A stretch of DNA of 64,000 nucleotides from Flectonema sp. DT1601 (GCA_964019425.1 OZ025797.1:558001-622000); one strand, 5' to 3'; counted from the stretch's first letter, positions 1-64,000 are shown. Numbers and translations: made by a program. Notes: generated by a model not told the origin, from the sequence alone.

Positions 1-6
1 AATGAT

Positions 7-3000: not shown

Positions 3001-6000
3001 TGTTTGTTTAGTGATTCTTTACATGTCTTCTCAACAGTAGACTTGGCTATCAGAGAGGAACTACCAAAAGAAAAAACAATTCTTGTAACCGACCCTTCTG
3101 TGATAAGATCCTTTGATGGATACTACTCACATCACCATGTCACTACTGCTGTGAAACATGTTTGGAGTGGACTTGATGACCATTTATTTAATATTGATAA
3201 AACGAACCTTTGGAATGCAGTTCTCCACACAATAGAATCTGATGATCTGGTAGTTAATAATATTATTAAATGTAAACCTGAGTGGTGTATTTCATATTGT
3301 GAGAGTCTCTTGTCTGATGGTTGGTTTTCTGAATGTATTCTGTCGGGTACATTAGAGAGTCAAACAATAGATAAAAAAATTATTAATTATCTACAAAATG
3401 AAATGATAAAACATTTAAAGGATCACCTGACTATGGAATTACCAAAAACAAAAAGAACCCTTAAAATGATGCCTGAATTTCTAAGATTTCCCTGGCTCAA
3501 TGAGGGAACTATCGACTTGCTTGTCCAGGAGGCGGATATTGATGTCGAAAACTTCTTTCCTTTCGCTGACGGGTTGGCTGTTGCCATAAGCAAGCTTATC
3601 CCAAATCCGGGCAGTAAACCTTTTGCATCGTTGTCGGGAATTACTAAGACACTAATGGGAGATTATTGTATGAAGTCCGATATGGCTAAACGTTATTTCG
3701 AAACTCGTCATAGCGCCACTGCGGATGAAATCGACAGGCTCAGCAAATGCTATGAGGATGGAAACCCTGCCACGCAACTAATTGCCGGTCACATAATATC
3801 GGAGACTAGGCCTCCAGGTGTTGTTGTAGATCATTATCCTAAAGAGGTAACTCCTGAATCACTTTGGAATGTATTTGTACTGGATGAGGAACATCAGTTA
3901 AATGACGTCCATAAACTAAACGAAACAGAGTCAGAATCAGTGCCACACGGGGAGTCAGATTCGGAAATAGGACGTTCCGAACTGTTAACACAACAAAAGG
4001 AAATCGATCCGAATGAAGTACTGCAAGACATTCGAGAAAGTTTTGTTACGGTTGGGGAAAACGCTGAGAACATGAAACAAATGCTGCACAGAAGTATCGA
4101 GTTGATAGCCACAGATGCAGTAGCTTCAAGATTTCATTTTGTTTTTGAGTTGCTGCAAAACTTCGATGATGCCAAGTACTCGTCTAAGGTGATTCCAACT
4201 GTGATGGTCGTCACAAACAGAACAGAATATTCGGAATTTGCTGTTTTCGGATCGAATGAAATCGGGTTTACGAAAACTGATGTTCGATCCATCTGTAATG
4301 TGGGTTTAAGCACCAAAAAGGGACGAGAAGGATTCATCGGTGAAAAAGGGATTGGGTTCAAGTCAGTTTTTGCAGCAACGAATAATGCATCTATTTCTAG
4401 TAATGGGTACAATTTTAAGTTTGAAAAGGACAAGTCTGATTTGGGAATGATTTATCCTCTTAGTTGCGATACTAAAGAAATTGATTTCCTATCAGACTTA
4501 CGCGAAACAAATGAAATACAAACCTGTATTGTGTTGAAGGGTTCTGTGCCGGTAGATGCGATCAACAAAATAGACGAGAGGTCTTTATTGTTTTTCAGGA
4601 AAATTAAAAAGATCAATATCGACTCAACTACCTGGCATCGCATAGAAGAAGAAGACAATGAAATAGTTCTTCGTAATGAAGTGACAAAGGATAACAAACG
4701 TTTTCATATTATCCACAATGTGATCAACGATGTTGAAGTGACTATCGCATTTCCGTATTCACCATCGGTAGCGATATCGTATCCAGTTTTTAGTTACCTT
4801 CCGATAAGGAAAGCTGGTTTTAATTTTATTCTGAATGCCGATTTCAAATTAACCTTAAATCGTTGTGATATTCACAACGATTACGAAAGTAATAAAAGAA
4901 TCAAAGATGTTTTCACTACAACATTTGAACAACTTCTGGTTGACGACAATTCAAATTTTCCAGCAGTTGCGTATCTGCCAGTAGATGCAATAGATGATGA
5001 CTTCTTTGGGGATTCAGTTAAGGAATTGTTACAAAAAGTTTCGACAATGAAATGTATAAAAACAACTGACGGAGAGATGTCTATTCCGAGTAAAGTTGTT
5101 ATCATTCAAACAGATGATAGCTCTTGTTTGGATTGGATTAAAAAGTTTAAAGGTACAGATCAGGTTTGTTTTGCTCATCCAGACATCGCAAGACGATTAT
5201 CAGATTCAATCATCAGAACTTTAAATATTAAAAGATGGTCGTTAGAGCAACTATTGGATCTCATCTCATCTAATTCTCATCGGTATTGTAATGAGGATTC
5301 TGATTTCTTCATTGAAATGATAAAAGTAATGTTTAATAGTAATAAAATAAGAGGTCAATCAATTACTCTTTATAAACTGTGGCCTCGTGAAGGAGATTCT
5401 TCAAAACTATACACATCCACACTTTTGAGTATTTCAGACCTCCGAAGAGATGTTTTTGACAAACTCACCGACGAGTTGAAAGAGTTTCTGACTCGAGAAA
5501 TAGGTCTCACAAACATCTCGGGCCAGTTGCTTACTCCGCAGGGATTGATTGATACGGCAGCTTCTCGTGATCCGAGTGAGTCATTGGCGTTTTACATCTC
5601 ATGTGTTGAAAAGAATTATGACGAAAATACTTTGAAACAAATTAGAAAAAAGGTTCAGCTAAAAAGTGCTAAAGAGGAATACGAAAGTGCAAACTCTCTC
5701 TTTGAAAGTAAATTCAAAAATATTTTAAATAACTCGTCAGTAGTTTGGGATGGTTACAATCATTCAGAGCAACGATACTTTGAAGATCTCGGTGTTGCTT
5801 CCTCTTTGAGAATATCACCAATGGGATATCTCTCTGAAAGTATCTTGCAAGGTGGAAATATTATCGAATTTTTGAAATACGTAAATTCGAATTTTTCAGA
5901 ATTTAAATACGATTTTCACGCAAATTGGTGGACAGTCCTACCCGACACGATCCAAAATACAAAAATTGAAACAAACTTGGGATCATATTCTCTCAGAGAT

Positions 6001-7269
6001 GTGTATTTTATCAAAGGACTCAGCGGGTCTAACCGTATTTCTGATACGATAAATTCGCATTTTCCTATCGCTGAAGTCGATATTATTGGTTGTGAAATTT
6101 TAGCAGAACAACTCAACGTAAAGATTATTGACATTGACAATTTGGATATCGGCGATGGTAAGGGTGATTTATTTTCGTTAATAACTCAAAATCCAAGACT
6201 ACAGGAGTTAAGTGGTATTCATGTTCCTCTTGTTGGAGGAGGTACGGCCGCACCTGATAAAGAGTTGTTGATTTGCGATATAGAAGACGCGGATCCTGCT
6301 GACATTCTTGAGAATTTTAATATCCAAGTTGCGGATGTCTCACCTGATGTGATATCAACTTTATTAAAACGTCCTAAATGTAAACGTTTATCGAGTAAGA
6401 CAAAAATAAAAACAAAACCATGTCAACCTCACTACAGCTCACCACTGCGAGCGGCAGCTCTCCTAACTCGTTGCTCTGAAAGGTGCGATGGAGAATTTGT
6501 ATTTATTGGAAAAGCGTCTGGTTACATTGTCCCTCCTGGATGTGGAAAGCTGAAAATTGGGTTCCATTGCGAACCGACGACTTCTTTTCCAGGAAAACTG
6601 ACTGAGTATAGTAAAATATATTTCTTTAATAAACTGATGGAGTATGCTCTTCCTTACACAGTTGCTGGGGAGGAGGACGGTGATGACGCGCACAAGTTCA
6701 TGGCATATCGTAAATCAGACAAACTATTGTTTGTCGGTGAAGGCAACTATTCCTTCTCGAATTCAGTAAAAGAAAATCTGAAGAGCGACAACGTAGCTGC
6801 GTGTGATATTCGGTCCAACGGAAGAAACGGAACTTACGGTGACGCTACTGACAGCAAGATCTACCGAGGCGGTTATTATGATTTCATTATATTCAACTTC
6901 TTGCACACATTCGGAAGTCAAACAGGTTCAGCTGATGTTATGAATTTGTCGATAGAATCAAATCGGGAATTAATAAATGGATTCTTCAGGGCTGTTCCTA
7001 AAACGAACTTCACAAAGATCCACGTGACTTTGAAAACAACTTTCCCATATTCTCATTGGGATTTAATTGATATTGCTAAACGTTGTGGTTGGGAGTGTGT
7101 CAGATCATTTCCATTTCCTGAATCATTCTATCGCGATATTGGATATCGTCACACAACTACTAATCCCAAATTGAGAATTTCTGGTGGTGTCAGCTTAAAG
7201 GGCGCTCTGACGTTTGAATTTGTAGCCATTCTTGGGAGTGATTCTGCGAGTGTTGTGAGGAATCATTAA
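7..7269 (+). CDS. Giant RNF213/mysterin-like multi-AAA+ protein fused to a sacsin/NO VEIN-like GHKL ATPase and a C-terminal BMT5/DUF2431-like methyltransferase domain; probably 5'-truncated by the window edge
   Basis: Walker A GETGCGKT with Walker B IFLDEMNT; second AAA GPPGTSKSLS and SNWNIDPAKMNR, plus FPPPLLNRFQKH (RNF213-like). HFVFELLQNFDDA and GEKGIGFKSVF are sacsin/Nov GHKL motifs. LLFVGEGNYSFS, DFIIFNF.H and VTLKTTFPYSHW are DUF2431-like. 2420 aa open frame with no introns. Confidence 0.8.
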   Translation: MDRLLFQIIILKCLVDSKSKAHAFNIRVVIEAQRSTELLDLFNKRVVDLETWNRKNVIITTTKEDQKEDLMKRLGTMPMTQWRTLSAFYDVHSGVADEDIIEKIMKSNNTQTYPFLKLKNPIIDKYRNQSIPIGYPSFIWTRELADLMVQLDTWYTARIPIILEGETGCGKTFLVKCWCALRNLSLEVITIHGGYDMFRIKEMLRERVKKALKIYRSTPCRKRTVIFLDEMNTTSSVDLLKEAICDFRLDGKTMIDSQKDTCLHHVTFIGAINPDRKRTEKELERYRHQGLQVLSGNSTNLADKVYRVHSLPETLKQYCIKFPDMGEDIMVRSIEHTIESENIKNDYFIKLIKAAHFYMISDDSDYRVANIRDVKRVVSVYKLFMGLHKLCMGSLCTELEMTPDSASMVAIHVVYVSKLNNRSGLYSKLGDTFESTVLQVQNRFMEFIKLPKGIVLNDALRDNVFMMIVGITLKIPVFIIGPPGTSKSLSKSIVSEVMIGIASQNSLFQKLPEATLRVLQCSPHTTAKDLSDHFDDCSRNKNDVVVLEEAGLAEMSPEMPLKLLHEKFDESECPCILTSNWNIDPAKMNRGLFLTRSMPSDEVLLETAKLFAGSSHQVLEKFLTGLSIGFKEAAEFMRGMKEFPEGAFYALRDFYNCVKMIVSLPDPVPHCIRTIVHKNFSGLPETPQLEVDKIFESKMEIPIRKFNFTLSQIEISNSFQDIDNGRFPLIVSSNISSTLYYLKPELEILLPDGFEVVSGSGFSRDSDLEYTKKLISRIRPILNSGRGLVLLNANTSYESLYDLFNKHFTEFDDQQFVDIGLGRTKINVSVHKNFKLVLLVNRWDAYHAFPPPLLNRFQKHCFFVADDEATALKKWIIKEGNVRGQCHGLGKLDDELTCTDPPADEQLAMLLSVCGSADEAKKSLKHCFAVPLDAKHTSLESVLSLGGPMHVTVDQSKHLFESKDSDIVLIDVGAVKTKEELINELSSVASSNAKYIIICLFSDSLHVFSTVDLAIREELPKEKTILVTDPSVIRSFDGYYSHHHVTTAVKHVWSGLDDHLFNIDKTNLWNAVLHTIESDDLVVNNIIKCKPEWCISYCESLLSDGWFSECILSGTLESQTIDKKIINYLQNEMIKHLKDHLTMELPKTKRTLKMMPEFLRFPWLNEGTIDLLVQEADIDVENFFPFADGLAVAISKLIPNPGSKPFASLSGITKTLMGDYCMKSDMAKRYFETRHSATADEIDRLSKCYEDGNPATQLIAGHIISETRPPGVVVDHYPKEVTPESLWNVFVLDEEHQLNDVHKLNETESESVPHGESDSEIGRSELLTQQKEIDPNEVLQDIRESFVTVGENAENMKQMLHRSIELIATDAVASRFHFVFELLQNFDDAKYSSKVIPTVMVVTNRTEYSEFAVFGSNEIGFTKTDVRSICNVGLSTKKGREGFIGEKGIGFKSVFAATNNASISSNGYNFKFEKDKSDLGMIYPLSCDTKEIDFLSDLRETNEIQTCIVLKGSVPVDAINKIDERSLLFFRKIKKINIDSTTWHRIEEEDNEIVLRNEVTKDNKRFHIIHNVINDVEVTIAFPYSPSVAISYPVFSYLPIRKAGFNFILNADFKLTLNRCDIHNDYESNKRIKDVFTTTFEQLLVDDNSNFPAVAYLPVDAIDDDFFGDSVKELLQKVSTMKCIKTTDGEMSIPSKVVIIQTDDSSCLDWIKKFKGTDQVCFAHPDIARRLSDSIIRTLNIKRWSLEQLLDLISSNSHRYCNEDSDFFIEMIKVMFNSNKIRGQSITLYKLWPREGDSSKLYTSTLLSISDLRRDVFDKLTDELKEFLTREIGLTNISGQLLTPQGLIDTAASRDPSESLAFYISCVEKNYDENTLKQIRKKVQLKSAKEEYESANSLFESKFKNILNNSSVVWDGYNHSEQRYFEDLGVASSLRISPMGYLSESILQGGNIIEFLKYVNSNFSEFKYDFHANWWTVLPDTIQNTKIETNLGSYSLRDVYFIKGLSGSNRISDTINSHFPIAEVDIIGCEILAEQLNVKIIDIDNLDIGDGKGDLFSLITQNPRLQELSGIHVPLVGGGTAAPDKELLICDIEDADPADILENFNIQVADVSPDVISTLLKRPKCKRLSSKTKIKTKPCQPHYSSPLRAAALLTRCSERCDGEFVFIGKASGYIVPPGCGKLKIGFHCEPTTSFPGKLTEYSKIYFFNKLMEYALPYTVAGEEDGDDAHKFMAYRKSDKLLFVGEGNYSFSNSVKENLKSDNVAACDIRSNGRNGTYGDATDSKIYRGGYYDFIIFNFLHTFGSQTGSADVMNLSIESNRELINGFFRAVPKTNFTKIHVTLKTTFPYSHWDLIDIAKRCGWECVRSFPFPESFYRDIGYRHTTTNPKLRISGGVSLKGALTFEFVAILGSDSASVVRNH

Positions 7270-7928
7270 ATTGATTATCGTTTTGTTGCTATTCAGCAAT
7301 CAAATACTTTTTTTATCTTTCCTAATATTATTCGAGAATTATGTTCTTTGCAGTAATCTTACTTTATCTTGACCTTGTAAGGCTAGACTGACTTTATGAA
7401 GAGCAAGCGCTAATCAGTTTGTAAAGCATCCGATGCCTTTTTTCTTGGGTCACTAGTTTTCTTTTTTACTTTAGTAACGTGTGTTGGATTAAGCCGATGA
7501 AAAAATAGAGAATCCTCGAAGGAGACCTCTGTCCCCATTCGAAGATACTCTCAATCGGCTTTGACTTATCAGTTTTTATTTTTATTTTATCTCAATCTTA
7601 CGGATTTAATAAACCCCCAAAAAAAAAAAACAATAAATAAATCCGAAAAAAATTTTCAGGGGACATGTCCTCAAGAAAGAAAAAAAAAGAACGGAAAAAA
7701 AAAGGTAGTACCCATAAAAAACATAATATTATAGTTGTATGGGATCTTTTTTCCCCCCCTTTTTACGAACATCTTAGATACTCCTTCGACTCCTGTTTTA
7801 CATGATTTTGAAGATGTATCAGATTATGCATCAGATCTTGATAATTAATCATCTTATACTTTCTACATTTATTGTAGAAGAGTGCTCCACTAGTAGTGCG
7901 CTACGAACTAGTAATAACAAGAAGAATG

Positions 7929-8291
7929 TTTTTTTTATAAACATTATAACAAAGTAACTACATCCTAGTCTTGCTAACTAAGATGCTTCAGTCACAACAG
8001 ATGATTGACTTACTTCTACACCATAACTGATGATGAGAGAATAGAGGTAAGAGGTATATGGATTACTCTCGAAACCTAATAGTTACTTTAAAAGGCTAAG
8101 TTAAGCATCACACCTAGTCACTGTATCTCAGAACTAATGTTAAATTATCGTTATGTTTTTTATGATACAAAACATTTGTATTTTACGTACAAAATCAAAC
8201 AGTTAACCCCCCTTTTTTTTTTTATAAACATTATAACAAAGTAACTACATCCTAGTCTTGCAAACTAAGATGCTTCAGTCACAACAGATGG
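7929..8291. repeat. Two near-identical ~72 bp direct repeats (~7929-8003 and ~8217-8291)
   Basis: ttttataaacattataacaaagtaactacatcctagtcttgc(t/a)aactaagatgcttcagtcacaacagatg occurs twice. Confidence 0.85.
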
Positions 8292-11192: not shown

Positions 11193-12053
11193 TCACAAAG
11201 AAGAATCTACACTGTGGTGCAGATTACTTCTGCGTAGGGGTTGTACCGGGCTGTTTCGATTCGACGGGACACCGGCACCACCACCACCACGCGAGTTAAA
11301 GAACGACCCCAACGCTTGTTCAACCTTCGCTCTCGTTCCGTGTGAGACTTCCTCTCGAGAAGGAATGTCTGCTGGGTTTAGCTTCGTGCTTACCCAGGCA
11401 AGGGAGTAGGAACATTTCAAAACTAAAAGGCATTCAATCGCAGTTATCAAACACCTGTTGAGACTGTGTGAGCGAACACACATCTTCTTCCTAAAAGCAC
11501 CACAAACTGTAGTGTTGTCAACCCAGATGGAAAGGTGGTCGGCCTTTGCAATTCCTTTGAGTGTCTGTCCAAGAGCGTCCGCTTCAAGGATATTTATATG
11601 TCGGTCTTCACCAGCAGGCCATGCCGCACCAAGAATTTCCAGCTCACCTGTTTTCCAAACGATGACACCTCCCCATCCCTGCAATGAGGCATCTACAAAC
11701 ACTTCGGCAGTCCTCCCCTCTTTCTGCTCAGGCATAATTATTCTCTCCTTCTGCACAGCACCGATCCACATTTCTAATTCCCTCCTTACTGAACGGGGCA
11801 ATTTTAGTACCTGCTGTACTTGTAGGGTCCCCTTGTTCAAGTAATTTGTGACCCTCGGGACCTCTCGTGGGCTCGGAAGCCTTCTGTGTCAGGCCGCATG
11901 TCGTGTCTACAATGAAGTGTCAACTTGGAACTGTTACGAACAAGAGGAATCCAACTGGTTAATTAAACCACAGCATGTCGCTTCATCACAGCGGTGGCGA
12001 GTGGCATGTGACTTCTGCCCAGTGCCCTGAATGCCAACGCTGAGAGATCAGGT

Positions 12054-12088
<35 letters not shown>

Positions 12089-22037: not shown

Positions 22038-22116
22038 GGCTATATAGCTCAATTGATAGAACGCCGGTCTGCAAGAATGGCGGTCGAGGGTTCAAAACCC
22101 GCTGACGGTGGTTTTT
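22038..22116 (+). promoter_or_regulatory. Degenerate tRNA-like sequence (A box, B box, T5 terminator), divergent from the LINE 5' end
   Basis: TAGCTCAATTGATAGAAC D-arm, ccggt-CTGCAAG-aatgg anticodon-like arm, GGTTCAAAACC T-loop, then TTTTT. The acceptor stem does not pair. Confidence 0.5.
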
Positions 22117-40913: not shown

Positions 40914-42107
40914 TTAGCGGTTGGGCTGTTTTTCTTTACGTGAGAGTTACATCGAATTCTTGTGAACGATTATTAATAAAAAGTAACTAATTGTAAGTGA
41001 TACGTACCTCGTCTTCCTTGCACACTGACCAGGCGCTGTCAATTTGGTCTTGGCTCGGGTTAACTGCCTTACCACAACATTTAATAAAATACTCTTTGTC
41101 AAAGTCAGGTACAAAGAACGGATGCTCAATCATCTGTTTGAGTTGAGTTGAGTTGAGGGAAACTAATTTTATAATTTACGTAATAATGATAAACACAATA
41201 CCTGTTCTAATGTTATCCGTTTATCAGGATCAACAGTAAGCATTCTCTTAATGAAGTCAGCAGCGTTTGGACTGAACTTCCGACTCATTCTGTACTCACC
41301 TGCTTCAATCTGTTTAGTTGTTGTTGTTATATTGGACTTCACAAATAGTTGACAACTTGTTATAAAAAAGTAATATCTCAATACCTTATCACAGAGGACG
41401 TTCATATTTGGATCATCAAAAGGAAGGTATCCCGCAAGCATCGCGTAAAGGATTACTCCAGCTGACCAGATGTCAGCTTTCTTACCGTCATATCCTTTTT
41501 CTTTTAAAACTTCTGGTGCCATGTAGTTAGGAGTACCACAAACAGTATTAAGGAGTTGTTGGTTATTCAGTAAACGAGAGAAACCGAAATCAGCGATAAA
41601 AATAATGTTGTTAGTATCAAGCAAAAGGTTTTCCGGCTTTAAATCTCTGTGAGCGATTCCTTGGGCGTGGAGGTAGTAGAGTCCAGAGATAAGCTGCTGG
41701 AAGTATTTGCGAGCAACGTCCTCTTCGAATCTCTTCGCCTGCTCTAATCTGTCGAAGAGATCACCTCCAGTCAACAGGTCAAGGATTAAATAAATATTCT
41801 TACCAGTCTGTAGCACGTCAACCATCTTTAATACGTTTCGGTGATCGAGTAATTTCATAATTGCGATCTCTCGCTTGAGTTGTTGTTCCATGTGTCCCTT
41901 AGTTAGTAATTGTTTGTCAACAATCTTGACTGCGTACTTAGTACCATTCTCAACATCACATCCTTCTTTTACCTGTTTGTGAGTTTTGGTATTTGTTGTT
42001 CCCCCTCACAGGAAGACTAAATCAAAATATATAACAAACAATACCTTTGAGAATGTTCCAGCTCCCAGGGTCTTACCCAATTCATACTTGCCGATGCGCT
42101 TTGGCAT
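40914..42107 (-). CDS. SNF1/CIPK-like (CAMK group) Ser/Thr kinase, about 5 exons
   Basis: MPKRIGKYELGKTLGAGTFSK, HRDLKPENLL, DFG and CGTPNYMAPE motifs. GT-AG introns link exons ending ...HPFF...KEDE|PNR*. Confidence 0.88.
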
Positions 42108-42499
42108 GTTGTCAGCTGTGGAGCGGGGGAGGGGGAGGGGCTGGAATTTGATAAAAAACTTGATCACCTAACAGAGCAGACTATATCTTAATTTTTAGAA
42201 AACAATTGCTACCTTTGAATGAATTGTTTTATTCATTTCTTCCATTATAAAAAAGAAAGTAGAATGAGAAAGTCCGCAATAATTTGATATTGTTTTATTT
42301 TAATATTTTTACTCAATACTTCGTTGAGGGAATCCATTGTACGCAGAGCGCGTCTTGTCAATCGAACATAAAACTAAATTTTAAAAGAATAACTTTTTTC
42401 TTTTTTTTGAAATAAAAATAAGAAATAAAAAAAGGACGTTTTACATCAAAGGATGCAGCTGTTCAAATGAAATAAATAATCACCAGAGACAGGTCCTCT

Positions 42500-43410
42500 C
42501 TATAATTCACCACAGTCTTCAATAATGACATCCTTGTCAGTAGAACCGTCAGACGTTCCAACGGACTCCATCTTCTTTACGATATCTAGTCCCTCAATAA
42601 CCTCACCAAAGACAACGTGTTTTCTGTTTTTTTTTTTTTTTTTTTTTCTTTCCCTCCAACATCAACTAAAAACAATAAAATCAATTATAATAAATTAAAA
42701 ACACACCCATCAAGATGAGGAGTAGGTACAGTAGTAATAAAGAACTGAGAGCCGTTGGTACCCGGACCGGAGTTGGCCATGGAAAGAAGACCACCCTTGG
42801 TATGTTTAACGCGGAAGTTCTCGTCGTCGAATTTCTCACCGTAGATAGATTCACCACCAGTACCGTTACCAGCAGTGAAGTCACCACCTTGACACATGAA
42901 TCCAGGAATGATGCGATGAAATTGATTTCCTTTAAAGTGAAGAGGCTTTCCAGATTTACCATCACCCTTCTCTCCGGTACAAAGCGCGCGGAAGTTCTCA
43001 GCAGTCTTTGGGACAACGCTGCCGAAGAGCCCGAAGACAATACGTCCTTTTTCTTCTCCGATTTTCATGTCAAAAAAGACCTTTGAACTTGGAGCAGTGT
43101 CAGGAGGAACATCATCCTTCTTTAACATGTATTCCCAATGACCTCCAACACCTTCTGCGTCTTTTGCTTTTACTAAAGTGCAGATCATGTGACGCTCTCC
43201 TTTTATTTCTTCAATCTCCCAAAGACTGTCATCAACCTTAACAGTGCGGTACAGTTCTTCTTCTTTAATTACCTCTTTTCCTCTAATTCCAATGGAGACC
43301 ACTTTAGGAGCGATCTTCCAGGTGAGGTCCTTCCCTTTTATCGTACCGATTGGGATCTTTATAATTACATTCCCAGTGTCCTGTTCCCATTCGTATCCTC
43401 CGATAGACAT
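42500..43410 (-). CDS. CS (p23/NudC-like) domain-cyclophilin fusion PPIase, 2 exons
   Basis: YEWEQD...VDDSLWEI...LVK (CS domain); [48 protein letters not shown] and second-exon HVVFGEV (cyclophilin). Confidence 0.92.
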
Positions 43411-44090: not shown

Positions 44091-47000
44091 TTAAATCTTT
44101 ACGGCTCCAGGTACAGCTTTGCCATCGCGATTTCCCCTGTTGTGTTTGATTTTTTTTATGCACCCCCCCCCCTAGGGGAACTTTGATACGATACGAAAAG
44201 ATTTATCTGGGAAGAATACTGCAGGTCTTTGCACAAAAAAATAAAAATACTGTCACCATGAAACAGAAGGCGTTGAACATTGCCTGGTTTCTTTGGTGGA
44301 GGCCACGTGAACGTAGTTGAGCACCTCTTGCCTACGCTACCGTAACAGTGAAAAACAGCTGTAAATTAAAATCAATGTGAAAAAAATAAAATGAAACCAA
44401 AGGTTAACAGTGGACGAATCCGACGTAAGGCTTTCCTAGACTACTCGAGTCTTCAGCGGTCCGCTCGGTGATAGCAGCCTAGGAAGGACAAGCTCACCCA
44501 TCTGCCTGGAGACCATTCAAATTGGCTCGCTCTAAATTGGCGACCTAAACGCTCTACCCTATCGCCGCGATTGCCACTGACAACCTCTAACCAACTATAC
44601 TACGACCAAACATAAGGGGAAAGGGGAAAGTGTGCTTATACCTGTACAGCCACGACTCTCGATTTCCGTAGTGGGGGGACTTTGATACGATACGAAAAGA
44701 TTTATCTGGGAAGAATACTGCAGGTCTTTGCACAAAAAAATAAAAATACTGTCACCATGAAACAAAAGGCGTTGAACATTGCCTGGTTTCTTTGGTGGAG
44801 GCCACGTGAACGTAGTTGAGCACCTCTTGCCTACGCTACCGTAACAGTGAAAAACAGCTGTAAATTAAAATCAATGTGAAAAAAATAAAATGAAACCAAA
44901 GGTTAACAGTGGACGAATCCGACGTAAGGCTTTCCTAGACTACTCGAGTCTTCAGCGGTCCGCTCGGTGATAGCAGCCTAGGAAGGACAAGCTCACCCAT
45001 CTGCCTGGAGACCATTCAAATTGGCTCGCTCTAAATTGGCGACCTAAACGCTCTACCCTATCGCCGCGATTGCCACTGACAACCTCTAACCAACTATACT
45101 ACGACCAAACATAAGGGGAAAGGGGAAAGTGTGCTTATACCTGTACAGCCACGACTCTCGATTTCCGTAGTGGAGCCCCCCGCGGCACTCCCTATATAGT
45201 GCACTATGCTTGACTCTTTTGCTATATAACTTGTCCCTTGGGCTATATAGGAAAAGCAGCAAAGAACTCAACATGGAAAAAGCCGTTAAAACATTTGTCT
45301 GGTTAAAACGGATCGGTGGGTAAAATTACGCAAGAACAACCATAAGGTCTCCCACGGTTTAATGTAGCACATCTCCACGCCAGTCTCAATGACCGAGGTA
45401 ATGTACTAAGGGGGAACTTTGATACGATACGAAAAGATTTATCTGGGAAGAATACTGCAGGTCTTTGCACAAAAAAATAAAAATACTGTCACCATGAAAC
45501 AAAAGGCGTTGAACATTGCCTGGTTTCTTTGGTGGAGGCCACGTGAACGTAGTTGAGCACCTCTTGCCTACGCTACCGTAACAGTGAAAAACAGCTGTAA
45601 ATTAAAATCAATGTGAAAAAAATAAAATGAAACCAAAGGTTAACAGCCGTAGTGGGGGGGGGGTACAAGCTGTCGATAAAGTACTTTTTCCGAATTTTGG
45701 TAAATATAACCTTCCCGGGGGCAAAAAATACCCAGGACCCCATCAGAACCCCCAAAAATGTGATTTCGGGGCCGAAAAAACCTCGATTTGGCTGATTTCG
45801 GCAAAGGAATGAAAAATCTCAAAAAGTGTGGACCGTGTGGTACCTGGGGGTCCAATTTTGAGGCCTGTGAAATGCACCTTCAAATAATTTTTTTTTACAA
45901 TGAGAAGAGGTGAGTCTTGGTGTGCCCCTGTATGCGCAGTTTGCTAATATACCATTTCCGTATCAGTTTCCACCTCAAGAACACGCCACGAAAAAGAACA
46001 GCGCTCTCGCTCGGCCATGCTTGAGGCCACGAGGCTCACGGGCAGGATAACGCAGCGGAAAACAACGTTCTGCAGGGCAGCTCACAAAGTCATTCTGCGG
46101 AGGAGAGCATTGATCCCAGAGTGCATGAAAACACCTCCCGAGGCATCTCTGAAGTCACGCAACAACACTTGGACAGTCAGAAGTAAGATACGCGCGAGAA
46201 AGGGGTTCAGAAACGTCCAGTATCTGAATCGTGATCACAGAAGGCTCACAGAATGGAGAAAGCGCCACGTCAGTACCCCAAACAGGGATAATCCTGAAGA
46301 CAGCTGTAGTGGTAGTGCGTCAAATAGCAGTGCCATAGATAAGCAGCAGCGACATAGGGCAACATGCCCTATCCAAAAAGCCGTTCAAGGCATCACTTAA
46401 GACCCAACCATACTCACCAGCAGGGCATACAAGACACTCTAGTATATGCAGCATAAGGAGAAGTACGAAAGACACACCCGCTTGCAACTGTACCCAAACG
46501 AGGGAGATATACTCCTGGAGTCTTGGAGTCGTAACAACACTGCAGATATTGCGGCAAGAAGGGATCGCCGCAGAGACATGCAACAAAGTCCTGAGTGAGT
46601 GACATAGTTGAAGCTGTCGCAGGTGCGCAGACAGAAGGGAAGCGGGTCGAAGTCACCAACTATATCTCGAAGGACAGTCCGACTTGTTGATGGATTCAGG
46701 TGATCTGTCGGTGACCTGACTTCTTGAAGCAGCAGCTTCCTCTTCACCCTCCGTCACATTGCTGCAGCATGATACTTCCTCTAGTCCCCGTCGTGCTCGT
46801 GGGATGAAGCTAACAACCGTTGTGTTCGTTGTCATCCTGCACCCCTCAAGGGATGGGGAGGTTATTCAGTGTTGTTGATAGTTCTTGGTCAACTGATGGA
46901 ACCAGTGGCGTGAATGTTGCCCTACTGATAACGTACAACATATTCCAGAGGCACACGGGCTTCCAAAGGCTACCACATCAACGCAGGACCACCGACCCTC

Positions 47001-48291
47001 TTCAGATTGGCAAGAACAAGCACAACAGGAGGCGCTACAGGGGCTGAACGTACCACCCCGTCCTCACAGGGAAGACCTCTAGACAGCAAGGTCTAATGCT
47101 AATCTGCCGTCTGCATCCAAGGATTGGTCCTCTGTCTATCTTGTACAGAAAGAAGCACAGCTTCGGGCCGAATTTCGAAAGCTGAGCACATGAGATGCTC
47201 AAGAGAAGGCCAGTAGCCTAAACATCGGACAAGGGGGAATTAACACGCCGGGTCTCGTGTAGCATATTATTAAGGTTCAAATCAGGTCGATAAAAATAAA
47301 AATTGGGTTCCCTTTTCATCCCCCACTCAACTCGGAGGGAAACCCTGGTTATGGATTGCTCAATGCACGGAATTACTTGTAATTTTTGTGAGCCCTCCTA
47401 ACACACCCCCTGTTTTCACCCCCCTCAGGTACCACACGGTCCACACTTTTTGAGATTTTTCAAAGACTTGTTCTAAAGTGCCGAAGAACTGTTTCTTTGG
47501 ATCGCAATCCCCATTTTTGGGGTATATGTTGCAGTTTTCATAATTTGGGTGCACAAAAAACTTGTTCTCCGGAAAAAAACCGAAAGTGCCCAAAATCTCC
47601 GTAAAATCGATGCTTGTACCCCCCCCCTACCCCAGACGAATAAGAAGCTAAGAATATTTTTATTTCTCACACCAATCCAATACTAAATAACAAAAACATA
47701 CATCAAACACGGATCAAGTGAAGTGTTCTTTGGCTGTACACCAGTACTGGGGAGTAGGTTAGCATCGAATCCGGGAGTCCAGCCAGGCTTTCTTTTGAAA
47801 TGAGTTCTGCAGTATTGACACATGGCAGTACGGTCTGGAGGTACAAAAATCCACGACATGTGGTGACGGTTAGCACGCTCACTTCCTCCAGTTTGAGTTT
47901 TAAGTGGAGTAAAGTAAGTATTATTAGACGATCCTGAACCAAAACAGGTCACAGTCGTTGCCTCAACTTCGATTGCAGAGTCTGGAGTCTGTCTGCCAGC
48001 CCAGGCCATGTCGGGATTACTTTGAGCACCCGATTCTCTAAAAATAGATCGAGTTGATGTTGTGAAATGACCGAGTCCTCCCGATGGTTTACTAACTCTG
48101 AAGTTGTTACTCATCTCTCTTCTTGTATAATATTCTTCATCAAAATGTGAATCTGACTTACCACCCCAAACTGGGTTCCAAAAATTCCAGGCAGCGGTCT
48201 CATTGTACCTAGTAGTCCCCATCCCATCAACATTTACAGCGAGTTCTTTCGGTTTTTCAGCTAACCGAACCCCGCATCGCCGCAGGGCCAT
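44091..48291 (-). CDS. Mitochondrial zf-CHCC protein (NDUFS6/COX5B-like zinc-binding subunit); exon 1 48291-47702, predicted exon 2 44136-44091
   Basis: MALRR presequence-like start; VTCFG...H..WIFV...CQYCRTHF. GTATGT donor at 47701 and CAG acceptor at 44139-44137 join in frame to give MGNRDGKAVPGAVKI*. Confidence 0.6.
44175..45655 (-). mobile_element. Head-to-tail array of a 499-bp non-coding element (44175-44674, 44675-45173, internally deleted copy 45410-45655); putative non-autonomous Penelope-like element
   Basis: Near-identical direct repeats with a 499 bp period. Motifs are shared co-linearly with both ends of the PLE at 58.4-63.6 kb. Confidence 0.7.
45654..47627. mobile_element. ~2 kb non-autonomous TIR DNA transposon with G-run termini and a probable TA target duplication
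   Basis: Ends G10TACAAGC...GCTTGTAC9; ~40 bp inverted subterminal match between 45812-45850 and 47421-47460; TA at 44173-44174 and 47628-47629; no intact transposase. Confidence 0.75.
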
Positions 48292-56962: not shown

Positions 56963-58433
56963 GTTCTTGTGTTGGCTGGTGGGGAATTGTTTTCAAATAA
57001 TTATCAAAAGATCTGTACATCACGAAGTAAGAAGGAAGAATAATAAAAAACATCCATTCACATGTTTGCTAACAGAAAGCTTGCAGTGAAGAATTGATAG
57101 TTTATGATTCGTCATCAGATGACAAACAGAACAAACAAGTATCGATTTCTTGTTTGTTCTGTTTGCCGAAGAGACGGCAACAGAAGTCTAAAGGGAAGGA
57201 AGGTTCGCACTGCTCAGCAGGAAACCCAAGATATACGTCAAGAGTATTTTTGACCAAAAGAAAACATCTAAGAGTCGAAAGAACAGCTGTAGTGACTAAC
57301 CAGTTTTAAGAAGAGAACTTCAACATGGAAGGTACTCTCTGATATTAATCACGTGTTAAATCAGAAAGTAATGATGTCAGCTAAGGACGCAGCAGACTAA
57401 ATGATAAAGGACAAGAATAACGTAGAAAAGGTAAATAAGAAAGATATGAGGACATGTCAAAAGTCTGGTGTGGGATCTCACTTTACTCGTGATCTTTGTT
57501 TACAAAAAGAAATCCTGCATTTTTTGCTTGTGTTACAACAGACTTGTTGAGGTTCATTATCATGTAGAAGAGTTTAAGAGACAGAATGCAGTCTATTCAG
57601 AAAACACTTCTGACACGGAGATTATAACACTTGATTATAAGGTTCCCTACCACAAGAGTCATGATCACAGTACAGTTGTCTGGGTATAACTATGCATTTC
57701 AAGTTGCACAATGGACTCAACAGCAATTGACTTTCTCCTGCCGCATACAAATCAACTCAAAGCTGATGGAACTCTTCCGAGAGTTACTCAGAACTCTTGC
57801 GATCAGAATGTGATACGTCCAAAGGAAACGCAAAAAGTGTAGAACGTGGTGCTAAAAACTAATAATAATCATCACGTTAAAAGTATTATTTTACCGATAA
57901 TTCCATTTATTTTTATAATGAAAGATTAGAATACAGATTTAGGGGATGATACTTTTAGCAAGGCTGCATATGTTACGTTTGAGTTTCTCTGTAGCCACAA
58001 GCAAGTTCTCCGTAAGCCCAAGCAAAAAATGCAGGATTGTGATGCGTAACTTAGCCTTTTAAAGTAACTATTGGCCCGGGGGGAAGACTGTTTGATTAGG
58101 TGCATACGAATATAAATCTCTGTATTGTATCAGAACTCAATAATAAAATTAAAAAACTCATGACTTGCTAGTTCGTAGCACACTACGTAGCACTCACCTT
58201 AAATAAATTAAGGTAGTAATGTCCAAAATAAGTTGGAATAATATGAGAGGATTACGTAGTTCAACATTAAATGTTGGGGCATCAACAGGTTTAGAGTGAG
58301 AGAATTTTAATGGCAAAGTCCAGAGTGGGGAGGTTTTACCTAAATAATACCATCTTCTGTGTCCTTCTAAGTTCTATGCGAGAACTACAAGAGATCTTTG
58401 ACATGTTCTCATATTGAAAAGAGAGGGGGGGCC

Positions 58434-61400
58434 GGGGGGTAACTTGATACTAATATTAAATGGAAAGCAACTTGAAACTGGCAAAAACGAGAATAGGGTT
58501 CGGCCAAACCTGGTTGCAATATAAGAAATCAACAGTTGGTATCGATAGAAAATCCCATATGTGCTGTCGAATATGGGGATTCGGGGGCCACGTACTACAG
58601 GTTGAGCACCCCATGCCCTGTAGCCCGTTACAGCTTAAAATAGTATTCCTTCACACTTCAAAGGTAAATAAATATTAAAGGAAAATTAAAAAAAGAAAAC
58701 TATTTTTGCAAAAATAATAAAAGAAATAAAGAATAAAAATAAAATATAAATTATTTCTGGTTCGTAGCACACTACCAGTGGAGCACATCTCGCAATACTT
58801 TGCTGCGAGTGATAATTAACTACGTTCGCTTTGCTCTCGAAAGACTGTACAATGAGTTTGGTGTGATCTTAAGCCTCGTAAATTAAATTGTCTTCCGGCC
58901 TGAGATTCCGTGGCACCACACGCAGTACAGATGAATAATCCCAAACAACTCAAACAAACATCATAATCACAGTCTTTTTGTCTACATTGGAATGCAAGAT
59001 TATAAGTGGTTTGTGGCATGTTGCGATCACAGATATTACAGTACATATTACTACTTACCTTCGCAAATTTCAGGTTGTGTCTTGCTGGACATAAGTGGAG
59101 CTCTTCTTTAAAGATTAGAATGTCTGAATCTTCTAATAAATTAATAAGTACATCCACAACTAGCTCTTCATCAATCGTATTAGAACTTGAGGAAGTAGTT
59201 GAGGAAGATGAATCGGAAGAGGTCACAGATACGGTTTCTGAGGTTAAATCTGAGCAACTTGACATTGTTGTGGCTGCTTTCATTTTGATCTCATCGAAGT
59301 ACCAGTAATGCAACAGTTCGTAAACATCATAATTAACGTTGTCGAAGGTTAAAAGGTTCATAGTGGCACCCGCTTTCGATAGAAGAGTATCAGCGTCGAC
59401 AAAATTAGGACACATTTTCGCTAATTCAGGTACTATTAAATTCATGAAAGCCTCATAATTCCATTGCGACATAGTAAATATGGTGCATTGTTTTCCGTGA
59501 CTTCTCGGTAAAATTGGCATATAGTGCTCAGAAGTAGTATGGTACGCCATTACACCGATCGTACCCCAAAAATATGTATCTTGTGTACTGGCTGGGGAAA
59601 TCCATCGTAAACTTTTTTCCTGCACGCTATTAATAGTGATTAGTATTAAAGAACAACCCATTTCATCTAAGAAAGCTTGAATATACACATGATCTGTATA
59701 TGTATTACTGTCAAGTACATCTTCTGTGAATTTTTCATAATCTGTGTCTACAAAACTTTGGTATTGCGCCTTCTTTAAAGTCAGTCTACGATGTATAACT
59801 CTACGTACCCATTCAGCGTTTATGACTCCATTTTGACAAATTATTAGTGCCATAGATTCAAAGAAACAATTACCTGCTGTGTTTACCGAGGGTATTGTTA
59901 AGTCCCAGTCCATAGTTTCTAGTAGAGTTTTCATATCCCGAAACGTAAAATAAGAAACCAACTCGTCCAAATGTCCCAGATTCACCTTGGCATCCGAATT
60001 GGTAGGGGATGACAATTTTTGAACTAGGACAGCTGTTCTGTCGGTTTCAATTTCATCTTTTTCGATGGGCGGGTACGTTATATAGTTTCTTTCACCAGTC
60101 GGGTAGTAATAATCTTTCTTCAAGCCTTCAAGGATCCGGTAGAAAAGATTGATGCATCTTTTATTGACAAAAGGATATTCTTCATAGAATTCGTCACAAA
60201 ATTCCTTGTAGCCGGTTGATATGTGATGCTTTTTAAATTTTCTAGTAATCATCCGATAAATTATCCATTCAAACTCTATTAGTAGGTCAGAGAGGTTGTT
60301 ACAAATCATGCTGGCTCTATACATCGCTCCTTTAACTATACCTTTGGGTATGGAATCAGGCATCGTGGAGTCTGCATGCACGTACTGTAAAGGTTTGAAG
60401 TTCCACTCTTTCCGATGAACGGAGAGACGAATAAATTTCTTTTTCACTTTCACTTCTTCCCTTGCAATGTCTTCCTCGACCCGTATCCGTGCACCAAGAA
60501 ACACCACATCATTACTATCTAGGGAGGTATCTTTGTAGTCCATGCCGTACATCTTTTGCGGCGGTGGTTTTGTCCCCCAGCATAAAAAATCATCAATATA
60601 TCTTACTGTTAAAGTATGTGACTTCGCAATTTCCAGAGTTGACTGTTCTATAAATTTCTTCTCAACTGCATAACAATACAAGTTAGCTAGAAGCGGGGAG
60701 GCATTACCACCCATGGGTATCCCTTTCGTTTGACGGTAGCATTGATGACTACCAATCGGTTGGATTAAAGAATAGTCGATACACATGTCAATTAGTTTAC
60801 CAATCATTTCGGAAGTGTATTCCTTTGTGTTTGCATCAACTCCGTCTGTGAAAAAGAAAGTCTTGGACTTTCCACGTGCTCTGCTATTTCGTGCAATATG
60901 TTTCTTACCGGAAAATCTAAAAGCTTCATCTACTGCTTCTTTGCAATTTCGTTTAAGTACCTTATGCTTCAGGTTGCTGTACATGGTGGTGAAGTCATAA
61001 GTTTTGGGTTCAGCGTATTTTAAAAATTCAGGGTAGTTGGATTTAATCCGTTGTATTACCTCATCTACTGAGTCAACAATAAAATATTTTCTAACACCAG
61101 TCTTTACATATTCCATATGGTCCTTTGATTTTAGTGTGAGCAGTATTAACTTAATAATTCCAGTAAGTTCTTGTTGAGCGTGTGTCATTACATTGGATCG
61201 AAAAACTCTCTCTCTTGTATTGGTCACCTTCTTTGATTCGTCAGTCTCTTTGTCAGGTTCATTCGTTTCCTCAATCAAAGTTTCACAGTTGACAGAAGTA
61301 CCTGCAATCCATCTAAGGCGGATGTCTGGGATCTTATGCAGTTTAAAAATCCCATATAAGTACGGCACTGCGCCAGTGATTTTTGGAAATTTGAGTTCCT

Positions 61401-63560
61401 TATTTGTTTTCATTAACCCGTCTGTTAATACATTTTCTACTTGTTCGTAACTTTCCATTTCATTTTTCAATAGCTCACAATAATAAGCTTTGCACATTAC
61501 TGCGCAATCATGTCTTGCTTTATCCACTGGGAGGAATAGGACATGTTTTTTTAGGTCCTTTAATTCTCTCATACACTTTGCTAAAGTTGCATCGTTGGGT
61601 AAGGGTTTTAATTGTATTTGTGAAGTGAATTCTTCCTTCAGCCATCTATTTAAGACTTCGGCGTTTGCTTCTCTGTCGCTTTTAGTTGTCCCAATCATGA
61701 ATCTCGTTACTTTTTCGGTAAATCTATCAGCTGCTTCATGAAGTTCTTGTGTCATCTCATGTTGTGAACAGTGAATACGGTAAAGCATTCCTAACTTTAG
61801 TACCTCTTTTAGTTGATCACTACATTTCAAAGAAGAACAATGTCCTGCAACATGTTTGGTATTACAATTATCTTCTTTGTATTGATAACAAGGACATTGT
61901 TTATCATTTAGTGGAGGTGACTTTTCTAACTCAATCGTATTTGTGTTAAATATTTTCGATCCTAAAGTTCTGCTGAGTCCATAGGATGTTTTGGTAGGTA
62001 AACCAGAGGGTAGTAACTTCTTATACTTTTCTTTTATGAATACTGCATTAAAGTCCATTTTCTTCACACAAGGGTGCAGCATCTTCAGACAAAACCAGTG
62101 GCAATCAACCACACGATTCTTTTTTCTTTCTCTTTTAATTTTAAGAGCCTCGTTGAGTGCTACAATGATTGCTTGCATTTTATTATTTTCTTTCACTTCG
62201 TGACTTGCAAATCTTCGGATCCAGTGAAACATTCGTGAAATTCTTGTGAAAGACCAGTCTTTAATAACTTCAACATTAAGTGCTTCAAGATTGCATAAAT
62301 GCTGTAGTTGTTTCCTTAAGCCATAGAATAGGCGAAACTTTGGGTTCGGTCCGACATCAGTGATGATCACTCGACCATTATTTATTTTCGTCCAATTTGA
62401 AGGGGGTTCGTTAGTATTCTTTTTCCGTCTTCTTCTTTTTATCTTTTCCGTCGGGACTTTCGTTCGTGTGGATGCTTTTTTGTTATTTTGTACTTTCTTC
62501 TTTCCCAGTATATTATAATGCGGTTTGAAATGACTGATCCAAAACCTCTCGGCTGGGTCAGCCATATTACGGAATAGGAAACTGTTGTTTTTCAGGAAGT
62601 CGGGTTCATTAATTACTTCCAGTGTCACTGGGAATAATGGATATTTTCTCTTACGTATGAATTTGTATAATGGTTGAGTACATTTCCCCTGTACTGAGCG
62701 ATTGCTCCAGTGTTGTTTTTCTCGATCTCTCGCAGTTTTATAAGTTTGACCAACATAACGGATATGTCCTCTCTCACACAATAAACCATAAATTACACCT
62801 TTACAATCTTGAGGCTGTGCTTCAAAAGAGAGTCCACGTTGTTGGCGTGCTGTCCTTAACTTCTTTGAATAGTTCTGTTCAAACTTTCGTCTTGCTTCTT
62901 TTAATGAAACTTCGTACTGATCATCTCTACGTTGGTTCTTTTCTAAGATCTTCCGGTCTTTAAATGCAACAGTGTGAACAGAACTTTCATCTTTGGCTCT
63001 GCGAACTACTGATTTGGCAATTCCAAACGGTATATGGTCAAGAGCTAAAGATAATTGGGATTTGGGAGGTGAAGTATTTTGGGATAAATTATAATTTTGC
63101 ATGAGTGTTATTAATAAAGGTAACTGTTAACTCTAAAATAGTTAACTATTTTTTTGGGAAGCTTGACCCTAAAACTGCTTTTTTAAGAAAATAAAAATAG
63201 TAAAAATTAAATAAAAATAATGAAAAGAGATTAAAGCTTTCTCAAGAAGGCTAAGGAAATGAAAGGGAAAAAGGTTGTCAGGGGATTATTGAAAGCAGGG
63301 GATGAAGGTCGGGTCAGGGCTACTTCCCAGCCACAAAACCTTCATCCTAAAACCCCTGCAGCACTTGATGACTGCTCCTCATCTAATATGGGATCTAACC
63401 TACTAGTCCGCAGACGACTACCCTACTGACGGTGTTCCTATTAGTCAGTCAATAGTGTCCATCTACGACAGCGGGTCATCAAATACACAAGATAATAGAA
63501 AGAGAAAGAAAAGAGAGAATTGACTAACCCTGTACTGAACAACCATCTCAGAACGGAAGA
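58434..63560 (-). mobile_element. Penelope-like retroelement with N-terminal endonuclease (Naiad/Chlamys-type domain order); boundaries inferred
   Basis: Single intact ORF with GIY-YIG before RT. Ends inferred from motifs shared with the 499-bp repeat and from a G-run at 58425-58439. Confidence 0.8.
58816..63102 (-). CDS. PLE polyprotein: GIY-YIG endonuclease, reverse transcriptase, OTU-like cysteine protease and zinc fingers
   Basis: GVIYG..RYVGQT...R.KQH...AERFWI..YN (GIY-YIG); PVDKA, YDFTTMYS, QTKGIPMGGNASPLLANLY, RYIDD and VFLG (PLE RT); AGNCFFESMA...VRR...HYMPI (OTU-like); Cys clusters at the C-terminus. Confidence 0.88.
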   Translation of the reverse strand: MQNYNLSQNTSPPKSQLSLALDHIPFGIAKSVVRRAKDESSVHTVAFKDRKILEKNQRRDDQYEVSLKEARRKFEQNYSKKLRTARQQRGLSFEAQPQDCKGVIYGLLCERGHIRYVGQTYKTARDREKQHWSNRSVQGKCTQPLYKFIRKRKYPLFPVTLEVINEPDFLKNNSFLFRNMADPAERFWISHFKPHYNILGKKKVQNNKKASTRTKVPTEKIKRRRRKKNTNEPPSNWTKINNGRVIITDVGPNPKFRLFYGLRKQLQHLCNLEALNVEVIKDWSFTRISRMFHWIRRFASHEVKENNKMQAIIVALNEALKIKRERKKNRVVDCHWFCLKMLHPCVKKMDFNAVFIKEKYKKLLPSGLPTKTSYGLSRTLGSKIFNTNTIELEKSPPLNDKQCPCYQYKEDNCNTKHVAGHCSSLKCSDQLKEVLKLGMLYRIHCSQHEMTQELHEAADRFTEKVTRFMIGTTKSDREANAEVLNRWLKEEFTSQIQLKPLPNDATLAKCMRELKDLKKHVLFLPVDKARHDCAVMCKAYYCELLKNEMESYEQVENVLTDGLMKTNKELKFPKITGAVPYLYGIFKLHKIPDIRLRWIAGTSVNCETLIEETNEPDKETDESKKVTNTRERVFRSNVMTHAQQELTGIIKLILLTLKSKDHMEYVKTGVRKYFIVDSVDEVIQRIKSNYPEFLKYAEPKTYDFTTMYSNLKHKVLKRNCKEAVDEAFRFSGKKHIARNSRARGKSKTFFFTDGVDANTKEYTSEMIGKLIDMCIDYSLIQPIGSHQCYRQTKGIPMGGNASPLLANLYCYAVEKKFIEQSTLEIAKSHTLTVRYIDDFLCWGTKPPPQKMYGMDYKDTSLDSNDVVFLGARIRVEEDIAREEVKVKKKFIRLSVHRKEWNFKPLQYVHADSTMPDSIPKGIVKGAMYRASMICNNLSDLLIEFEWIIYRMITRKFKKHHISTGYKEFCDEFYEEYPFVNKRCINLFYRILEGLKKDYYYPTGERNYITYPPIEKDEIETDRTAVLVQKLSSPTNSDAKVNLGHLDELVSYFTFRDMKTLLETMDWDLTIPSVNTAGNCFFESMALIICQNGVINAEWVRRVIHRRLTLKKAQYQSFVDTDYEKFTEDVLDSNTYTDHVYIQAFLDEMGCSLILITINSVQEKSLRWISPASTQDTYFWGTIGVMAYHTTSEHYMPILPRSHGKQCTIFTMSQWNYEAFMNLIVPELAKMCPNFVDADTLLSKAGATMNLLTFDNVNYDVYELLHYWYFDEIKMKAATTMSSCSDLTSETVSVTSSDSSSSTTSSSSNTIDEELVVDVLINLLEDSDILIFKEELHLCPARHNLKFAKVSSNMYCNICDRNMPQTTYNLAFQCRQKDCDYDVCLSCLGLFICTACGATESQAGRQFNLRGLRSHQTHCTVFREQSERS

Positions 63561-64000
63561 CGGTTGTTGACAATAAATATTTATTGAACATTTTAAAAAA
63601 ATAAAAAAATAAAGAAGTAAACTTAAACTTAATCTTCGTTGAAGATCTCGAAATTAATTCGTACTCATATCTCTGAATAAGGTACATAATATTATGTGTC
63701 CCAAATTCCAATTAAAATTCATAGTAATTCATCATGGCGGTACATTTGTACTCCGAATCAGCCAAATTATTCAGTACCAATTGGTACTTAGGACTAAGTA
63801 TACAGCTTTGAATTGTATATACTCTTCTTAGCTGCAACTGCCTCTAAATAAACATTTAAAATCAACCAAATTATTATTGAAAAACACAGTAGAAACGATT
63901 ATAACTTTAAAACAAATTTCTTCCAAACAAACGAACGATAACCAACCGAAGATACGCCCTTAAAGAAACAGGTAACAAAAGCTACCGTTTAGTTCAAATC

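Follow-up and report, generated by a model that had tools for sequence, protein, structure and literature searches.

The 64-kb window analyzed here (the whole stretch of 64,000 nucleotides from Flectonema sp. DT1601, GCA_964019425.1 OZ025797.1:558001-622000, examined on both strands) carries a Penelope-like element (PLE) and a 499-bp tandem repeat related to it. All features of the element and the repeat lie on the minus strand, and it is their untranslated regions (UTRs) that concern us. An original prediction, made from the sequence alone, had marked positions 63294-63540, at the 5' end of the PLE, as a structured RNA domain and possible new self-processing ribozyme, where a hammerhead might be expected. 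The PLE has an open reading frame (ORF) of 1428 aa (58816..63102), in which a reverse transcriptase (RT) domain (residues 750-841, E 2e-5) is preceded by a GIY-YIG domain (101-196, E 0.0023), both matches being below the cut-off. The protein displays the motifs GVIY (102), YVG (116), CPC of the CxC type (403), DKA (527) and, within the RT, YIDD (835). Its C-terminus is Cys-rich and includes a GNC motif, which we take to be cysteine-protease-like. No CxxC occurs upstream of residue 1355, so the CX2-5CxxC zinc finger of Naiad elements is lacking; absence of such a finger before the nuclease is the Chlamys state (PMC8557442). Judged from motifs and domain order, the element is an intact Chlamys-type PLE with an N-terminal GIY-YIG domain.

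Like other Chlamys and Naiad PLEs (PMC8557442), it combines the N-terminal GIY-YIG with CxC, DKA and insertion at C runs, and it shares with them partial tandems, non-autonomous relatives, a probable 5' UTR intron and the lack of a canonical hammerhead. It differs in its host, which is probably a diplonemid, since all four species-named proteins among the ten top relatives looked up belong to Diplonema papillatum (30-43% identity). The term 'euglen' has no match in the main text of PMC8557442, nor has 'Diplonema' in one of its supplement files. The PLE protein is identical on three contigs and belongs to a cluster of 29 members; the family is hence multi-copy, and probably a recent one. At its 3' terminus (58433..58450) the element ends in GTATCAAGTTA followed by C runs, and the 430 bases remaining in the window 5' of the PLE hold no upstream pseudo-long terminal repeat (pseudo-LTR) or 3' UTR copy. 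Short repeats are found just 3' of the PLE stop (58786-58751), at 58208-58165 (minus) and at 7882-7917 (plus), with a second repeated motif at 58072-58038 and 8078-8112; these are probably remnants of related elements.

The repeat consists of two tandem 499-bp units (44175..45173) devoid of any ORF, each joining a 5'-UTR-like to a 3'-UTR-like part. A third, partial copy (45410..45655) retains only the 3' half, with the first 9 bases of the unit in front; along the minus strand, the array thus runs from the partial copy (45655-45410) through 237 bases of unrelated sequence to the two full units (45173-44175). The repeat ends in GTATCAAAGTT and a C run, and its 3' half can be aligned with the PLE 3' UTR (0 of 200 shuffles). 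The repeat is most naturally seen as a non-autonomous relative of the PLE with an internal deletion, of the kind known for Chlamys (PMC8557442), and features kept in both are consequently likely to be under selection. The array abuts the left end of an element with terminal inverted repeats starting in G runs (45652-47632; 45810-45850 matches 47462-47422).

Of the shared features, the candidate ribozyme lies in the 3' UTRs. In the PLE, a motif at 58563..58634 comprises a 7-bp helix (58623-58617/58601-58595), an outer helix and a hairpin. The 7-bp helix closes a 15-nt loop of the form GCA(U/A)G-RGGU-GCUCAA, the same in PLE and repeat; its PLE strands are GCAUG (58616-58612), GGGU and GCUCAA (58607-58602), with a predicted cut at 58604|58603, 212 nt after the stop codon. 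The corresponding motif of repeat unit 1 (44249..44349) has GCAAG as its short strand (44331-44327) and a predicted cut at 44319|44318, and two further copies with an identical core would be cut at 44818|44817 and 45555|45554. The motif spans 70-100 nt, and the predicted cuts precede the 3' ends by about 160 nt in the PLE and about 140 nt in the repeat. A downstream GGCCCC (58589-58584) is a possible pseudoknot partner in the PLE motif.

The alignment of the two 3' UTRs contains an ungapped block of 66 columns, within which the 7-bp helix reads CUACAGG/CCUGUAG in the PLE and AGCGUAG/CUACGUU in the repeat: all seven pairs form in both, and six of the seven are changed on both sides. A second pairing, GRGGU/GCCYC plus one C-G pair, is kept in 6/6 positions, one of them changed on both sides. 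Only 4 of 500 shuffles reach the covariation level of helix and pseudoknot together, and slid controls are 35-54% paired. The pair probability of the 7-bp helix in context is 0.78-0.81 (PLE) and 0.93-0.99 (repeat), and opening the loop costs 1.3-1.8 kcal/mol. A loop-plus-stem descriptor run over both strands of the 64 kb gave four matches only, the PLE and the three repeat copies; when the 371-nt 3' UTR was shuffled 20000 times, a match with a stem of at least 7 bp arose in 5 of the shuffles. Searched with a covariance model built on the two sequences, the window yielded no additional copy, the next best candidate having E 0.07. The sense strands of both 3' UTRs are free of a CUGANGA/GAAA core, and a sequence search of the PDB returned no relevant match.

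The loop letters closely resemble those of ribozymes of the twister-sister and twister-sister-like (TS-like) kinds. The LINE-1 TS-like ribozyme (LINE-1-rbz) has G7 C8 U9 C10^A11 A12 facing G36 C37 U38 A39 G40 (PMC11620745; letters taken from residue names in its text), and its relative activity is 0.47 with U38A and 0.8 with A39U (PMC11620745). Twister-sister, with G5 C6 A7 A8 G9 and G59 C60 U61 C62^A63 U64, in which A8U is reduced but active (PMC5660989), differs from the LINE-1 loop by U38A and A12U (PMC11620745). The repeat agrees with LINE-1-rbz at 10 of 11 positions, the sole difference being U38A, and the PLE at 9 of 11 (U38A and A39U); in the repeat, the short strand is thus exactly that of twister-sister and the long strand exactly TS-like. 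As in the human TS-like ribozymes (PMC11620745), the 5-nt and 6-nt strands form the equivalent of an internal loop with the C^A step and without SL4, and the strand order is stem-short-...-long-stem (OR4K15 numbering as read). Unlike them, the motif has no second Watson-Crick stem between the strands: there is one stem, and a counterpart of the second could form only as a pseudoknot or between copies, in a pairing that shows one compensatory change. The human ribozymes are also called poorly conserved and of unclear function in PMC11620745, whereas here the motif is kept, with covariation, by an intact retroelement with many copies, as part of its 3' UTR.

With the four-way junction form of twister-sister (PMC5660989) the motif shares the L1 letters G5 C6 A7 (A/U)8 G9 and G59 C60 U61 C62 A63, the C^A step and a P1 stem closing L1 (7 bp, six double changes). 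It departs from that form in having A in place of U64, in the absence of P2, of the junction on the P2 side and of SL4, and in matching none of the Rfam models; since P2 and SL4 are missing, we do not file it as twister-sister. In turn, it resembles the hammerheads of PLE pseudo-LTRs (PMC4209133) in lying near the 3' end, in being repeated in tandem copies and in a monomer that misses one helix, as do minimal dimer-dependent hammerheads, while differing from them in lacking their CUGANGA/GAAA core. A literature search that covered open papers, among them the accessible part of PMC6765202, brought up no PLE for which a twister-sister or TS-like ribozyme has been described.

The position of the motif gains weight from the relatives of the element, 18 loci of 21-33% identity that were collected by a protein-led metagenome scan. 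None of the 18 carries the 3' motif or an Rfam match at gathering score. Yet 11 of them, representing about seven distinct families by eye, possess a complete hammerhead core on the sense strand in the order site-GAAA-CUGA, compared with none on the antisense strand and none in 360 shuffles, for an SGC-order descriptor tuned on the same loci. CUGANGA lies at 4095 (L008), 4496 (L009), 5385 (L010), 3560 (L012), 5761 (L014), 4409 (L015), 137 (L017), 1933 (L018), 3209 (L019), 5172 (L020) and 3427 (L025). Among the seven misses, at least three (L011, L013, L024) end before the 3' UTR. These cores mostly lie in the 3' UTR or in the repeat of it upstream, and in the six relatives whose stop codon is clear the hammerhead-type cut site follows that codon by 68-293 nt, the predicted cut of the window lying at 212. 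The site-GAAA-CUGA order is that of the validated type SGC (PMC10085705), from which the relatives differ in that the helix II strand, which begins with G and pairs with C before GAAA, is placed upstream of the cut site and not after CUGANGA. The main text of PMC10085705 mentions Penelope in one reference only; its supplements may list PLE-linked SGC hammerheads. A twister-like motif without an Rfam match was noticed by eye in another relative (L016, ~3030-3085), between an RT ORF and the next GIY-YIG start. A protein-led scan of viral contigs yielded 20 candidates, none of them confirmed.

Hence the 3' UTR, and not the flagged 5' region, seems to be the ribozyme site of this clade. The proposal that a ribozyme stands in for the hammerhead gains support at the 3' UTR, 4.7 kb away from where it had been made, and not at 63294-63540. 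The expectation of a 5' hammerhead was nevertheless reasonable, because the canonical PLE pseudo-LTR places one at the start of the ORF too (PMC11167929).

The flagged 5' region itself, 190-440 bases upstream of the ORF (63102-58816), is structured. A long hairpin (63295..63359) has an 11-bp inner helix (pair probability 0.95) and folding z-scores of -2.5 on the minus and -3.1 on the plus strand. Next to it, TTGATGAC/GTCATCAA close a 118-nt domain (63365-63482) in a helix that reaches 12 bp on the minus strand, and the domain folds with z -3.08 on that strand (2 of 300 shuffles) against -0.56 on the plus strand; in a longer context, the closing helix has a probability of just 0.28. The folded part extends over 63361..63486 and includes UAGGGUAG (63425-63418) and AGAUGAGGAGC (63384-63374). 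A further 12-bp hairpin (63538..63568; p 0.94, z -3.3) directly precedes GUACAGG, the equivalent hairpin of the repeat being weak (z +0.1). At full length, neither the 261-nt PLE region (z -1.39) nor that of the repeat (z -0.26) stands out. The repeat has its own 13-bp hairpin (z -1.96), in which the minus strand forms G-U pairs and which is set within a long-range stem (44395..44592, z -3.8) that is not present in the PLE.

The words GTCGTAG, TAGGGTAG and AGATG-N2/3-GAGC lie at 63469/63425/63384 in the PLE and recur in both repeat units (44606/44561/44503 and 45105/45060/45002). Closer to the ORF, about 150 nt before the ATG, AACCUUU...UUUCAUUU (63251..63276) is likewise common to the repeat and includes a second pyrimidine tract with AG. 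No significance attaches to the overall local similarity between the 5' regions, which 130 of 2000 shuffles reach, or to an initial word chain (70 of 500). A colinear chain of words of at least 7 bases, GTACAGG, GTCGTAG, TAGGGTAG, AACCTTT and TTTCATTT, was equalled by 4 of 2000 shuffles, with boundaries that were picked after inspection, and global alignments under four parameter sets by 9, 62, 16 and 1 of 500. We regard the shared words as real but modest conservation.

Rfam searches of the whole window and of three zoomed regions, the flagged one included, gave no relevant match near the gathering score. The hammerhead descriptor (CUGANGA and GAAA, helices I-III in any order) had no match in 63100-64000 on either strand, the SGC-hammerhead descriptor none in the window and the TS-like descriptor none in the PLE 5' region; no tRNA was found. 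Much of the original prediction held: the element is a PLE with a related repeat, its 5' hairpin and domain lie as described, the region is structured on the sense strand, the three words are repeated, the repeat has its own hairpin of different sequence, and the PLE region holds no hammerhead core. Box C/D snoRNA, SECIS and spliced-leader RNA were dropped by eye as identities of the 5' domain, as were VS, pistol, hatchet, hairpin and twister ribozymes, for which word checks covered twister, pistol and hairpin only.

The order of sequences in the 5' region suggests splicing. In the PLE, GUACAGG, a pyrimidine tract and GUCGUAG (63463..63535) may delimit a 66-nt 5' UTR intron (63528-63463) or mark a trans-splice acceptor; in the repeat, GUACAG|GUAUAAG, the tract and GUCGUAG (44600..44647) offer a candidate 42-nt intron (44641-44600) or, again, an acceptor. 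In both elements the first AG after the tract is the end of GUCGUAG, following an AG-free run of 59 nt (PLE) or 33 nt (repeat), and a GT donor lies just upstream in the same order (G|GTTAGT and AG|GTATAAG, respectively). The repeat donor AG|GTA agrees with four of five host intron donors read by eye. 5' UTR introns are present in Penelope and Chlamys-3 (PMC8557442), and the introns of diplonemids have median lengths of 37-107 nt (PMC12621601). What weighs against cis-splicing is that the host acceptors inspected by eye finish in A-rich AAACAG and so differ from GUCGUAG. Host genes are also preceded by a pyrimidine tract and AG, which makes a spliced-leader acceptor as likely as a cis-intron. 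By prediction, GUCGUAG is thus likely a splice acceptor, whether for a short intron in the 5' UTR or in trans-splicing of a spliced leader, and the 5' region likely a structured untranslated leader containing it; a role in splicing or translation is plausible, and the 5' helices may represent family-specific leader structure. UAGGGUAG and AGAUG..GAGC fall outside the splice reading. The host introns at 40960-42710 (minus) are ~70-85 nt long; their donors are of the AG|GTATTG type, their 5' halves are U-rich and their acceptors are the A-rich AAACAG. A-rich tracts have been reported in some diplonemids (PMC12621601). Contigs of one sequencing run (0.48 of words, 80% likeness, depth of about 2 at close matches) revealed no joints and no motif variants.

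Taken together, the reading we favor, with a probability of roughly one half, is that the 5' end is a structured spliced leader and that the 3' UTR carries a twister-sister-like loop predicted to self-cleave at GCUC^AA. The missing second stem would be replaced by the loop GRGGU pairing with the downstream GCCYC, stacked in place of P2. This pairing may form a pseudoknot in one molecule or join tandem copies, and the two options are equal because the linker is short for a one-molecule pseudoknot. Dimer-dependent PLE hammerheads provide a parallel for pairing between copies (PMC4209133). By analogy with PLE hammerheads, the predicted cut would yield RNA of unit length from transcripts that are tandem or read through. 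Co-folding of dimers gains -8.8 and -6.7 kcal/mol over two monomers, which is not diagnostic, as any hairpin can do so.

A number of points weigh against this reading. Every tested twister-sister or TS-like RNA has stems on both sides of the loop, and here P2 with its three- or four-way junction is absent, the strands being joined by 4 nt with one possible pair. The 4-6 nt linker of the pseudoknot is short for its span, and five of its six pairs never vary. SL4 is not conserved (GTGCAAG is absent and GTGCAA occurs in the repeat only), the 3' motif has no Rfam match, and for the U38A and A39U double change of the PLE the accessible text of PMC11620745 gives no activity value, the single changes being tolerated. 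The loop descriptor was written after the match was seen, and 12 of 150 shuffles of the whole 64 kb contain a match with a stem of at least 7 bp, so that the case is carried by place and covariation. The motif is supported by two independent sequences only, and one PLE window folds otherwise (z -0.38). No genomic copy was seen to start at the predicted cut. The two-sequence covariance model detected no copy in the 18 relatives (best E 0.5), and a metagenome pattern scan added none; seven pattern matches, two in prokaryote genomes and five viral, lack the helix (1-4 of 7 pairs). The viral pattern-scan loci (6 and 1) were read as chance from their context.

Several of these points would suit a different account of the 3' motif, as a non-catalytic structure recognised by the RT of the element, with the twister-sister match a reused module or dead relic and the 5' end still a structured leader. 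Non-autonomous elements must retain a signal for mobilisation in trans, as established for non-LTR elements, and a motif kept in the repeat could be this signal; the second stem and SL4 are absent, and in vitro PLE reverse transcription starts in a template stem-loop with hammerhead cleavage not required (PMC11167929). We consider this account rather unlikely, though by far the strongest of the alternatives, given that the catalytic-loop letters match LINE-1-rbz at 10/11 (repeat) and 9/11 (PLE) positions, with each single difference tolerated, and that the motif occupies the place where relatives have a ribozyme core; moreover, recognition and cleavage are not exclusive roles. Much less probable is the proposal that the 5' domain (63294-63540) is a new self-processing ribozyme with GUCGUAG, UAGGGUAG and AGAUG..GAGC as its core. 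The colinear words speak for it, a two-word pattern occurring at the same three places only, as does the good folding of both regions on the sense strand in a separate test (z -3.6 for the PLE, -3.8 for the repeat), and the folding programs used are blind to any pseudoknotted shared fold. Yet no helix is shared in register, no common ribozyme core appears in the two regions, and the words are largely paired in each predicted fold with different partners: GUCGUAG and UAGGGUAG within one long local hairpin in the PLE, UAGGGU beyond the 13-bp hairpin, in the long-range stem, in the repeat. Forcing the pairings of the repeat onto the PLE costs 11.5-14.4 kcal/mol, and a shared fold is not supported. 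The hammerhead, SGC-hammerhead and TS-like descriptors are empty there, an HDV-like descriptor (nested double pseudoknot P1-P4 with the C of J4/2), run without shuffle control, gave one weak PLE match (4-bp P2) and none in the repeat, and GUCGUAG is accounted for as a predicted splice acceptor. Marginally less credible still is a decayed type I hammerhead, represented in the repeat by CUGAAGA (44456)...GAAA...CUU^ (44400|44399), with the PLE hairpin as its dead counterpart. A relaxed descriptor finds it, its three helices measuring 6, 2 and 2 bp; shuffles equal this in 2 of 500 cases, the threshold being the observed value and six region-strand pairs being scanned. Hammerheads whose helix III is long have been described from protist PLEs (PMC4209133). 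However, it is absent from the PLE, its cut triplet is CUU, three of six helix I pairs are G-U, and the fold penalty, 9.8 kcal/mol for the shortest construct, rises to 19-35 in context.

Elsewhere in the window, a divergent eukaryotic large subunit (LSU) rRNA fragment (11839-12158, 228 bits) extends over RT/RNase H-like ORFs belonging to a retroelement of the tyrosine-recombinase type (11193-15634, minus; labelled by eye). It is followed by a two-ORF long interspersed nuclear element (16175-22095, minus), whose 1305-aa ORF has endonuclease, RT and RNase H-like regions next to an upstream ORF (labels again by eye). Positions 1-7269 (plus) belong to an open-ended intronless ORF of 2422 aa with two Walker A-like motifs.

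More broadly, we tentatively propose, with somewhat less assurance than for the favored reading of the window, that diplonemid Chlamys-type elements use a pseudoknotted or dimer-activated twister-sister loop without P2 and SL4, kept under selection, as their self-cleaving RNA, and that, given the SGC-order hammerheads of the relatives, 'hammerhead-less' PLEs would have a 3' UTR slot for swappable classes of ribozyme. If so, a twister-sister core that occurs in nature, covaries and lacks SL4 would bear on whether the loop alone is the catalyst, and also on the kinship of the human TS-like ribozymes to twister-sister. Most Naiad and Chlamys elements lack a canonical hammerhead, and hammerheads have been suggested to be dispensable passengers (Craig et al., 2021). 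A different ribozyme at the same place would make it more likely that self-cleavage is a needed step of PLE retrotransposition.

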